Positions 13,414 to 60,491 are shown, numbered from the stretch's first letter. The stretch is DNA of 64,000 nucleotides from Eledone cirrhosa (GCA_964016885.1 OZ024752.1:13888001-13952000); one strand, 5' to 3'. Numbers and translations are program-made. The notes: generated by a model from the sequence alone, not told the origin.

Positions 13414-13644
13414 CATATATATATATATATTTATATATATATATATATATATATATGCAGATAAATCTACCAAGAGTTTACGGTAGTGTCCAATCCGTAT
13501 GAAGAACTCAATGTATTCCGGATATCATGGAAAGAAGAGATGTAATGAAAATCCACTTTCGGTGAAAGATAAACGGTATACAGAGTCAAGATAAAATATT
13601 AAACAAATAATGAATAAACAATTCCTTATATTAAACAAAAAAAT

Positions 13645-13799
13645 TTCATTATTTAACGATCGTTTCTAGGGTATATATGTGTTATAATTGGTATGCATAT
13701 TCAACAGATCTATGTACAAAATTATACAAAATTATACAAATTATCAAGATTAAATATACATACCTAACACATATATACGCCGTCTTCAGAAATAATGAA
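13645..13799 (-). ncRNA. hammerhead ribozyme with very long stem II, family A (inverted arm)
   Basis: Reverse complement of 20368-20522. Confidence 0.75.
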
Positions 13800-14970
13800 G
13801 TATATTTATTGATAATAACAACAATTCAAAATATCAGTTCAAAATTGACCAATGAAAACACAAAGGGTTAAAAGCAGTTCGGTGTGTGTATATACATGTA
13901 AAATCCTTACACATATTTTACAAAAATGTGTGTATAATTTGTATACGCATACTAAAAAGATGGATGCAAACACAAAATTTCAAGGTTAATATCTCCGTAA
14001 GCTTAATGCGCTGATAAGATGCGCATTGATACTTATGGAGTCAAGCATATAAATATATTTTTTCATACTCACACATATCAGTATAATCACACATACATGC
14101 GCGTATATGCATAAATATACACATAACCACGAACATACAAACACACACACTCCCCCACTCACATTTATATATGTGGATATAAAATCATAAGCACATAGAA
14201 ATTAAATCACTCACATAAAACACTGGCACACACATTTCAAGATCAAGATACAGAAATTAGGTGGGAGGGGGGGGAGGGGTCAGTATTCAATTGTCTGAGC
14301 AGACTGCCTAATATAAATGTATCTATAAATTAAGAAAAATAAAAAAATAAAACAATAAAATATAATAAATATAATATAATATACATACACATACAGATAT
14401 ATATACACATACATACATGTACGCGCACATAGAGATATTTACGCATACACACATACACACATATATATACAGTCATACACACACATACACTTACACGAAC
14501 ATACACATACACATATAAAAAGATATATATATACACACACACACGCGCAACACATACACACATACACATATATATAAAAAAAATAGATAATAAAGATATA
14601 TATCCATATATATATATACATACACACACACATATATATATATATATATATATATATATATATATATATACACATATATATACACATACATACACATACA
14701 TCTAAATATATATACACATACATACACACATACATGTACATACATGTACATACATATACGCACATCGATATACATACATATATATATATATATATATATA
14801 TATATATATATATATATATACACTCACATAGACATATAGATACATACACACACAACTTACATACACACGTATATATATATATATAGATGTACCTTCATAC
14901 ATAGAATTAGATATATAATCATACATACATATGCACCTACTTATACTCATATATATAAATACATACGCTT

Positions 14971-56610: not shown

Positions 56611-59600
56611 TATATATATATATATATATACATATCTATACATACAAATATATATACATATCTATACATATATATATATATATATATATATATATATATA
56701 CATATATATATATATACATATATATATATATATGTATATATATAAATATATATATATATATATATACATATATATATAATTATACATATATAAATATATA
56801 TATATATACATATATATATATTATATATACATATATATATATACATATATATATATATATATATGTATATATATATATGTATATATATGTATATATATAT
56901 GTATGATATATATGTATATATATATATGTATATATATATATATGTATGTATATATATGTATGTATATATATGTATGTATATATATGTATGTATATATATA
57001 TATATATATGTATCTATATATATGTATATATATATGTATGTATGTATATATATGTATGTATATATATGTATGTATATATATGTATGTATATATATGTATA
57101 TATATGTATGTATATATATGTATGTATATATATGTATGTATATATATGTATATATATGTATGTATATATATATATGTATATATGTGTATGTATATATATG
57201 TATATATATATGTATGTATATATATGTATGTATATATATGTATATATATATATGTATGTATATGTAAGTATATATATGTATGTATATATAAATGTATATA
57301 TATATGTATGTATATGTATGTATATATATATATATATATATATGTATGTATATGTATATATGTATGTATGTATATATGTATATATATATATATGCATGTA
57401 TATATATATATATATATATATATGTGTATGTATATATATATATATGTATATATATATGTATATATATATGTATATATATATGTATATATATATGTATATA
57501 TTTATATATGCATATATATATATGTATATATATGTATATATATATATATATGTATATATATGTATATATATATATATATGTATATATATATGTATGTGTA
57601 TATGTATATATATATGTATATATATATATATGTATATATATATGTATATATATATATGTGTATATGTATATATATATATACATATACACATACATATATA
57701 TGTATATATGTGTATATGTATACATATATGTATATATATATACGTGTATATGTATATATATATGTATATATATATGTGTATATGTATATATGTATATATA
57801 TGTATATATATATGTGTATATGTATATATGTATATATATATATGTATATTATATATGTATATGTATATGTATATATGTATATATATATATGTATATGTAT
57901 ATATGTATATATGTATATGTATATATGTATATATATATGTATATGTATATATGTATGTATATATATATATATATATATATATGTATATATATATATGTAT
58001 ATATATATATGTATATGTATATATATATGTATATATATATATGTATATGTATATATATAGGTATATATATATATGTATATATATATATGTATATATATAT
58101 GTATATGTATATATATATATGTATATATATGTATATGTATATATGTATATATATATATATATGTATATATATATGTATGTGTATATGTATATATATATGT
58201 ATATATATATGTATATATATATATGTATATATATATATATATATGTATATATATATGTATATATATATGTATATATATATATATATATGTTATATATATA
58301 TGTATATATATATATATGTATATATATATGTATATATATATGTATATATATATGTATATATATATGTATATATATATGTATATATATGTATATATATATG
58401 TATATATATATGTATATATATAAATATATATATATATATATGTATATATATATGTATATATATATGTATATATATATATGTATATATATATGTATATATA
58501 TATATATATGTATATATATATATATATGTATATATATATATGTATATATATATATGTATATATATATATGTATATATATATGTATATATGTATATATATA
58601 TGTATATATATATGTGTATATATATATATATATATGTATATATATATGTATATTATATATATGTATATATATATGTGTATATGTATATATGTATATATAT
58701 GTATATATATATGTGTATATGTATATATGTATATATATATATATGTATATATATATGTATATGTATATGTATATATGTATATATATATATGTATATGTAT
58801 ATATGTATATATGTATATGTATATATGTATATATATATGTATATGTATATATGTATGTATATATATATATATATATATATATGTATATATATATATGTAT
58901 ATATATATATGTATATGTATATATATATGTATATATATATATGTATATGTATATATATAGGTATATATATATATGTATATATATATATGTATATATATAT
59001 GTATATGTATATATATATATGTATATATATGTATATGTATATATGTATATATATATATATATGTATATATATATGTATGTGTATATGTATATATATATGT
59101 ATATATATATGTATATATATATATGTATATATATATATATATATGTATATATATATGTATATATATATGTATATATATATATATATATGTATATATATAT
59201 GTATATATATATATATGTATATATATATGTATATATATATGTATATATATATGTATATATATATGTATATATATATGTATATATATGTATATATATATGT
59301 ATATATATATGTATATATATAAATATATATATATATATATGTATATATATATGTATATATATATGTATATATATATATGTATATATATATGTATATATAT
59401 ATATATATGTATATATATATATATATGTATATATATATATATGTATATATATATATGTATATATATATATGTATATATATATGTATATATGTATATATAT
59501 ATGTATATATATATGTGTATATATATATATATATATGTATATATATATGTATATATATATATGTATATATATATGTATATATATATGTGTATATATATAT

Positions 59601-59704
59601 GTATATATATATGTATATATATATGTATATATATATGTATATATATATGTATATATATATATATGTATATATGTATATGTATATATGTATATGTATATAT
59701 ATAT

Positions 59705-60491
59705 GAGTTGTAATAAAATGAAAACGAAATTTCATTTCTCACTCTTCGTACTGGCACTTACTTAAATGTAAGTATGTATGTATACGTACATACATATATG
59801 TATACAGACGTACAGTAGCATGCATATATATATATATATATATATATATATATATATATATATATATATATATATATATATATATATATATATATATATA
59901 TATATATATATATACATATATATTCATATGTACATACAGGTACACATACATATATGTACGTATCAGTTTAATGGACGCTTAATATAGCGCCCGCTTTGTT
60001 CGTTTGTAAACAATCTGAACAGCCTGAATTTATGCCGCATGGTGTTAAGGCAACCACGTCACCTTTTTGTTCAACACTGACACAGGAACGATGTACTAGT
60101 TTCAAGCTTGTTAGCTATCATCAGCACCGTATACCCATCTGCCAGATAGTTGAACGTTCGAAAGTATATACTTTCCTTATGAAAATTAACGGCTGAGCAG
60201 CCTAATTTGCATATCGAGTGAGTTAAATCGGTCAAAGCTTGAAACTAGTACATCGTTCCTGTGTCAGTGTTGAACAAAAAGGTGACGTGGTTGCCTTAAC
60301 ACCGTATGGCATAAATTCAGGCTGTTCAGTTTGTTTACAAACGAACAAAGCGGGCGCTATAATAAGCGTCCGCTAAACTGATGCGTACATATATGTATGT
60401 GTACCTGTATGTACATATGTATATATATATATATGCATGCTACTGTACGTCTGTATACATATATGTATGTACGTATACATACATACTTACA
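59705..60491. mobile_element. non-coding fold-back HHR element, family E (copy 2)
   Basis: 60235-60491 is an inverted repeat of 59766-60109. (TA)n flanks. Confidence 0.85.
60088..60130 (-). ncRNA. minimal type I hammerhead ribozyme, family E
   Basis: The reverse complement reads ACGGUG-CUGAUGA-U AGCU aaca AGCU U-GAAA-CUAG-UA/CAUCGU, with palindromic stem III ACUAGU. Confidence 0.85.

Follow-up and report, generated by a model that had tools for sequence, protein, structure and literature searches.

Two fixed end sites in the Penelope-like elements of an Eledone cirrhosa locus, and a candidate twin hairpin beside those sites in the Hydra clade

Why does an inverted insertion end in a long tail on one arm and stop short on the other? 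We addressed this question in a 64,000-nt stretch of the Eledone cirrhosa genome (GCA_964016885.1 OZ024752.1:13888001-13952000; the window), for which a preliminary description had reported fold-back copies of several repeat families with such unequal ends. The window is AT-rich and eukaryotic, with long (TA)n-type arrays at 9.7-31 kb and 46-61 kb. The fold-back insertions are hammerhead-bearing Penelope-like elements (PLEs), and their arms end at two fixed sites. In the Hydra clade of PLEs these sites lie just 5' of the two copies of a hairpin, which is likely to dock the reverse transcriptase (RT) and so to set an internal start; we give this reading a probability of about 0.6.

Long and short ends of the window insertions

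Arm ends were placed by self-BLAST of the masked window and then by alignment arm by arm, which reproduced the positions in the preliminary description to within a few TA bases. That description gave families C, E, F and H without coordinates, and these letters were assigned here by tail length. Ten of the 11 same-family fold-backs (A1, A2, B1, B2, B3, D1, E1, F1, H1 and L) join a long end to a short end, and none is long-long or short-short; the eleventh, C1, is taken up below. Before family L was added, nine of nine discordant pairs had been counted (p = 0.002 under 50:50). Thus, the claim that each inverted insertion has one long-tailed and one short end, at points fixed for its family, held for ten fold-backs.

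In family A, both short arms stop 134 nt before the long-end position. A1 consists of an inverted, 5'-truncated minus-strand arm with the 134-nt tail (13457-14970, long end 13457) and a plus-strand main arm (14971-20576, short end 20576). The arm on the 13457 side matches 19213-20576 at 1363 of 1364 bases, so this copy is young. A2 (24084-25050) has its long end on the left, in a 270-nt arm (24084-24086), and its short end on the right (25048-25050). The four short ends of family B (23830, 50840-50844, 51941 and 56610) represent one common position, and three arms place the long end about 85 nt away (23281, 49071 and 51641). They belong to B1 (23281-23830; left end long, right end short with an internal duplication of 75 nt), B2 (49071-50844; a 1.7-kb minus-strand main arm with the long end, and a short arm of about 85 nt), B3 (51641-51943) and the plus-strand B4 (54873-56611). 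D1 (26128-27447) has a minus-strand main arm with the long end at 26128, a 55-nt tail and a 90-nt inverted arm with the short end (27445-27447). B2 and D1 thus carry the tail on their main arm, A1 and A2 on their minor arm.

E1 (59706-60491) has its long end at 59706 and its short end at about 60491; of the two tails previously described for this family, that of about 60 nt was found and that of about 130 nt was not located. H1 (46981-47310) pairs a 21-bp minus-strand short arm stopping at 46981 with a plus-strand long arm ending at 47310, a tail of 168 nt. Family L, absent from the preliminary description, is a minus-strand insertion (21963-22756, long end 21963) with a plus-strand short arm of about 16 nt ending at 22756. 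F1 (30961-32015) is the weakest case, with a long end at 30961 and a poorly aligned right end at about 31996. The long and short ends of family C (13413 and about 9840; tail of about 83-90 nt) belong to two separate insertions. Overall, window tails measure 55-168 nt. The outer ends of A, B and G all adjoin (TA)n-type repeats, and (TA)n flanks would hide any target-site duplication.

Several smaller pieces share these boundaries. The tip of the A tail occurs alone within (TA)n at 21026-21060 (plus strand, 34 nt) and again at 21838-21874; the two pieces, of 34-36 nt, have a near-identical 5' cut point and equal the classic Penelope 34-bp repeat in length, and may go back to a duplication or mark another, third fixed boundary. 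Across (TA)4 from the right arm of F1 stands a 13-nt inverted F fragment (31997-32015) whose end is of the short type. Raw reads from 4 of the 20 runs listed were compared with 12700-14070, outside the stretch 13405-13466. More than 1100 reads stop at 13271 in both RAD runs (13271-13413), implying a fixed start near the C long end. Steps in read depth near the short ends were not taken as end modes, being confounded by divergence and restriction-site bias.

The identity of the elements was established from their reading frames and ribozymes. The 5'-truncated A1 open reading frame (ORF; 14959-16689, plus strand) aligns with proteins that carry RT and GIY-YIG domains. Both it and the ORF pieces of family G (62486-64000, within a minus-strand copy at 61155-64000 with a long-type end at 61155) combine RT and GIY-YIG with a CxCX5C linker, CxxC and CxH and have no CCHH, which is the definition of the Hydra clade. 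On these sequence features A, B and G are assigned to that clade, B from its endonuclease remnant alone, identified by tblastn (B2, and B4 at 54873-55152, E = 3e-7). The GIY-YIG match of family G in Pfam (E = 7e-4) lies under its cut-off, and the A ORF had no match in PDB or Pfam. The minus-strand ORF piece of D1 (26583-27410) has a Cys-rich linker before GIY-YIG and aligns over its endonuclease end with RT-bearing proteins. By its sequence family D is a PLE of a different type from A and G, presumably Nematis-like from its motifs. The nearest named protein matches are both from Octopus, at 44% and, for D, 59% (an RT protein). The N-terminal RWK and DKT motifs are present in the homologues, and the window copies are 5'-truncated before them. 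No ORF was found for families C, E, F, H, J, K and L in the window, no ORF start in the tail translations and no relative of D or of the Hydra alignment in viral collections.

A descriptor search detected type I hammerheads in families A, B, C, D and E (11 matches scoring at least 13, vs one in 20 shuffled windows combined). Among them are the A1 motif (20368-20522, plus strand; stem II region of 116 nt, with cuts predicted after 20512 and, for the mirror copy, after 13655), one in C2 cutting after 13280 and one in E1 at 60124 (minus strand). Minus-strand hammerheads were recognized by eye in G (near 61300-61345) and, as a variant core cutting at about 22176, in L; none was found in F, H, J and K. 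An Rfam scan of the whole window gave just microsatellite-driven miRNA matches, and no hammerhead, among the 150 of 524 matches listed. Together, the RT/GIY-YIG ORFs, the hammerheads and the architecture of inverted copies bear out the comparison with Penelope drawn earlier. The family A hammerheads (20378-20512, 24842-24974 and 13655-13789) have a stem II region of 114-116 nt with a base helix of 14-15 bp, kept in A1 and A2, and this stem II far exceeds those of the Hydra elements listed in File S2 of PMC8557442. Near the F-like 3' ends, 10974-11003 and 31950-31996 share a hairpin-plus-motif with no canonical hammerhead core.

A twin hairpin between ribozyme and start codon

Relatives were collected with a Hydra-clade alignment search, in which the best 80 of the 395 matches fell at 78 metagenome loci; 56 of the 78 had a usable plus-strand hammerhead call and entered the leader analysis. 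A second set comprised 12 additional host contigs binned into metagenome-assembled genomes (MAGs), which played no part in defining the motif. The latter (L079-L090) are animal-type PLE contigs within bacterial MAGs, probably host contamination.

Downstream of the ribozyme cut we found a bulged hairpin, made up of RCTC, a stem-loop that is short and variable, a TY bulge of 2 nt and GAGY, usually followed by ACT, and in the Hydra-clade relatives it occurs twice between ribozyme and start codon. At least two copies were present in 27 of 31 distinct complete ribozyme-to-ATG leaders, compared with 24 of 6200 shuffled sequences, none of 31 reverse complements and none of 317 ORF windows; after redundancy clustering, 24 of 25 leaders had two copies. 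In 18 leaders, copy 1 starts 33-69 nt and copy 2 92-134 nt past the cut, with a spacing of 55-83 nt, and hairpin 2 precedes the ATG by 15-34 nt. No significant linear motif was common to the tails; the signal emerged only as a paired structure, with the use of relatives.

Pairing was evident at positions that the search did not demand: upper-stem pairs 2 and 3 were paired in 65% and 79% of cases, vs 40% and 42% when shuffled (0/5000). The core stem shows double changes, from GCTC/GAGC to ACTC/GAGT in the window families and to GCAC/GTGC in L080 and L083. A hand-picked alignment of 26 hairpins held 19 double-change cells vs 4.5 when shuffled, a result partly built in by the selection. Few G-U pairs occur in the hairpin. 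Of 49 hairpins, 38 are preceded at 2-9 nt by TAT or ATA, which occurs in 26% of background 8-mers. In Rfam, the L035 leader gave three rows (best E = 2), and no curated family matched. We found no description of a twin hairpin in the literature, the search covering sources other than subscription papers, Repbase reports and picture-only supplements.

The compensated core ACTC/GAGT recurs in most window families, and in A, B, C, H and L hairpin 1 begins 4-5 nt after the short-end position. In A1 (13506-13586, minus strand) it begins 4 nt past that position, with a 5-bp upper stem and an interior of 71 nt; in H1 (47148-47216) it begins 5 nt past, with an interior of 59 nt. The tails of A and H are longer in part because of these long interiors. 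Hairpin 1 lies at 23341-23360 in B1 and 51702-51721 in B3 (both minus strand), at 13333-13357 in C2, and at 22090-22123 in L, where the short arm stops 4 nt before it. In G it lies at 61228-61249 (minus strand), at the expected distance from the ribozyme. Family J, two tandem minus-strand pieces (30148-30917, long-type end 30148), has it in each piece (30236-30259 and near 30851-30885), and the plus-strand family K fragment (11425-11513, long-type end) at 11457-11476. In the C copy of the window the first upper pair is broken, at 13337; the pairing base was found there in 1319 of 1323 and 1700 of 1703 minus-strand reads of two raw-read runs. A covariance model detected nine window sites: four training sites, two other B copies, the second J copy, a weak site in F and one new site (22086-22129, E = 0.003), which led to family L and its long and short ends. 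The model did not recover the A, C and H hairpins.

We then compared the ends of the relatives with their hairpins. From 28 terminal regions, L010, L026, L040, L041, L058, L064 and L074 (no same-family leader or clear end) and the duplicate insertion L046 were excluded, and L027, L039 and L047 were added, giving 23 ends. Nineteen of these fall 0-8 nt before hairpin 1 (7) or hairpin 2 (12), mostly within a TA patch; the chance of such a position is about 11% per end. The 12 MAG-binned contigs gave 16 covariance-model matches, and six long-plus-short fold-backs were found in the relatives, five on MAG contigs and the sixth in L043 of the first set; their short arms stop 5-6 nt ahead of hairpin 1. 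Moreover, the published Hydra consensus sequences (Files S1 and S2, PMC8557442) end 30-48 nt past the ribozyme cut in 10 of 24 cases and 88-153 nt past it in 11, the rest ending at 63-70 nt (2) and 355 nt (1). These two groups of lengths near the two hairpin positions fit curators having stopped at either site. L086 holds an apparent tail-only insertion (3431-3500), which begins immediately ahead of hairpin 1 and reaches the long site, and the K fragment is similar.

A hairpin so close to the start codon could instead serve transcription or translation, as an internal promoter, for ribosome entry or for repression by the protein, the adjoining UA patch being merely exposed. Besides the 15-34 nt between hairpin 2 and the ATG, this would agree with a Penelope promoter that overlaps the 34-bp repeat region (PMC2377424). 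However, such a role explains neither the tight register of 4-6 nt at hairpin 1 nor the use of each site once per insertion, and of the readings considered here it is the one we find least probable.

How the two ends may be set

The preliminary description proposed two priming events, one at the RNA's 3' terminus and one internal, at TA micro-homology. Two events that build the two arms are supported, and compare with the two internal starts seen in vitro for a Poseidon element (PMC11167929); the TA micro-homology also stands, since a TA patch lies before both hairpins and at both ends. A start at the RNA 3' end is not supported: the Hydra-clade relatives run past the long end into the second hairpin and then the start codon, and the long end, too, lies in a TA patch. 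Both starts would therefore be internal; in sequence terms the long end is an internal point of the element and probably not the RNA 3' end.

The opposite view, that the long end is the RNA 3' terminus, formed by processing or termination, and that only the short end is internal, by TA micro-homology alone, has in its favor an AATAAA that precedes the B and C long ends by 8-15 nt and the lack of any window copy with sequence beyond that end. Yet A, F, G and H have no AATAAA in their last 110 nt, both ends share one context, many TA patches of the leader are unused, and the relatives extend into hairpin 2 and the ORF. We regard this view as improbable, although to judge from the sequence the RNA could conceivably be processed at the long end.

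We therefore favor the reading in which the hairpins set two internal starts. The endonuclease would cut both strands of a (TA)n target, and each free 3' end would pair with the UA patch that lies 5' of one hairpin, the hairpin docking the RT 3' of each start. One strand would be extended from site 1, giving the short arm, and the other from site 2, giving the long arm; the two 5'-truncated cDNAs would then join head-to-head. Either arm may become the main one (the short in A1, the long in B2 and D1), and the length of the tail would equal the spacing of the hairpins, extended in A and H by long interiors. Two-strand cutting and internal initiation are carried over from PAc (Poseidon, Anolis; Frangieh et al., 2024; PMC11167929). 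Since D and E follow the same end rule without an RCTC/GAGY hairpin, they would use another signal.

The main rival to docking is endonuclease resolution at the same landmarks. Here, the cDNA would come from further downstream and the GIY-YIG endonuclease would trim or resolve the intermediate beside hairpin 1 or 2. Resolution of the tail by the endonuclease has been proposed (PMC8557442), and, as cited in PMC11167929, recognition by the endonuclease requires the Penelope tail; moreover, the hairpin would fold in single-stranded DNA too, and its few G-U pairs do little to mark it as RNA. However, in the sole PLE assayed the genomic tail ends match the RT start sites seen in vitro (PMC11167929), and a TA patch before both hairpins suits primer annealing. 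We consider this alternative unlikely, if less so than the others.

Several observations qualify the end rule or weigh against docking by the twin hairpin. C1 (9840-10325) has its short end on the left, and its right end, at 10325, is an internal one some 430 nt upstream. The earlier picture of two-armed insertions holds for 11 same-family fold-backs and not for the single arms, without fold-back, of B4 (54873-56610; short end), D2 (10421), E2 (28385-28849, plus strand; short end at about 28849) and C2 (12700-13413, plus strand; long end). The D2 short arm (minus strand; end at 10419-10421) stands head-to-head with an F-like short arm (plus strand), so that 10421-11003 joins two families. D1 and E1 have no RCTC/GAGY hairpin, and F has a weak variant (31006-31039, E = 1.6), F1 also being without a canonical hammerhead. 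Hairpin 2 was observed in relatives only, no window copy running beyond the long end. The relatives are metagenome or MAG contigs and may be collapsed consensus paths, and 14 of the 22 inverted pairs listed in them have no assignable termini. Four of the 23 ends miss the hairpins: L014 ends 27 nt before hairpin 2, L008 12 nt and L020 21 nt before hairpin 1 (3 nt under a gapped alignment), and L039 has no matching hairpin. The main insertion of L082 is short-short, with duplicated flanks and a nested insertion, and both arms of L088 extend past hairpin 1. Finally, the 149 of 149 paired cells of the hand-picked alignment arise partly by construction.

Neighboring repeats and relation to known elements

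Other repeats share the window. An abundant SINE-like repeat of about 190 nt occurs at 1445-1635 and some 20 more places up to 45550, in tandem at 43711-44327; minisatellite arrays with units of about 37, 39 and 27 nt lie at 40391-42729, 38715-39039 and 36480-36830; and the window starts in an RT-like LINE fragment (1-402). Two related GC-richer fragments (46156-46332 and 53723-54314) lie within (TA)n. Unique islands in the TA arrays (29790-29957, 46427-46760 and 17356-18022, the last within the A1 3' region) matched neither hairpin nor hammerhead.

Hepadnavirus epsilon and the template-adjacent elements of telomerase are familiar cases in which a bulged stem in the RNA places an RT at an internal point of its template. 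We draw the comparison as a likeness of form; here, the element is doubled and priming would be from target DNA.

The rule of long and short ends is itself already known: a one-ended tail on inverted PLE insertions has been described (PMC8557442, Figure 2 legend; PMC3846280). Like canonical endonuclease-positive PLEs (Craig et al., 2021, PMC8557442; Arkhipova et al., 2013, PMC3846280), the window elements form 5'-truncated, inverted head-to-head copies, with a tail often at one end, which may be either, and a type I hammerhead in the pseudo-LTR. Further accounts of the 34-bp repeat and of PLE hammerheads are found in PMC2377424, PMC4209133 and bioRxiv 10.64898/2026.07.22.740005. What departs from the published picture is tail length, 30-40 nt in canonical PLEs as against 55-168 nt in the window families and 55-83 nt for the hairpin spacing of the relatives. 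The tail also lies elsewhere, in the leader before the start codon in Hydra-clade relatives and in early ORF codons in Pen2a_Av and PAc. Penelope-13_HM was considered as a published long tail and dropped, its two hammerhead positions being symmetric. With the Hydra clade (PMC8557442, section 11 and Files S1-S2), whose list includes an Octopus family, our elements share CxCX5C, CxxC, CxH, the lack of CCHH, a canonical hammerhead and insertion into (TA)n. The main text of PMC8557442 has no mention of a hairpin, stem-loop or GAGC, and the consulted portion of that paper does not state a tail length for the clade.

The closest mechanistic parallel is PAc. According to PMC11167929, the Poseidon protein in vitro cuts and extends both target strands from two internal starts, requires RNA 3' of the first site, and the tail is the stretch between the two starts; the target is AT-rich, as here. 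The PAc starts lie, as described there, in a stem-loop that is AC-rich and lacks homology to the target, whereas the ends described here lie in target-homologous TA patches just before a duplicated hairpin. The text of that paper that we consulted does not map a cis-element; by eye, the PAc RNA in its Figure S1B seems to hold GGCC-N4/5-AGCC twice, about 41 nt apart. Tentatively, then, the duplicated hairpin could be the RT-docking element of Hydra-clade PLEs, at which two protein copies, each on its own hairpin, would prime the two strands of a cut (TA)n target off a single RNA, so that every insertion has to receive one short and one long end, and duplicated docking motifs may be a general cause of the PLE tail.

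What is new here is the longer tail and a candidate cis-element, the twin hairpin, which we have not found in print. The RTs of PLEs are the closest retroelement relatives of telomerase, and the choice of internal starts, the tail on one end only and the targeting of (TA)n are named as open in PMC8557442 and PMC11167929. A conserved hairpin of 20-30 nt in a fixed 4-6-nt register to each end makes these questions testable by mutagenesis. It also offers curators a boundary rule for Hydra-clade elements, given the two groups of published consensus ends, and might serve to delimit the minimal template module of a double-strand-inserting RT.

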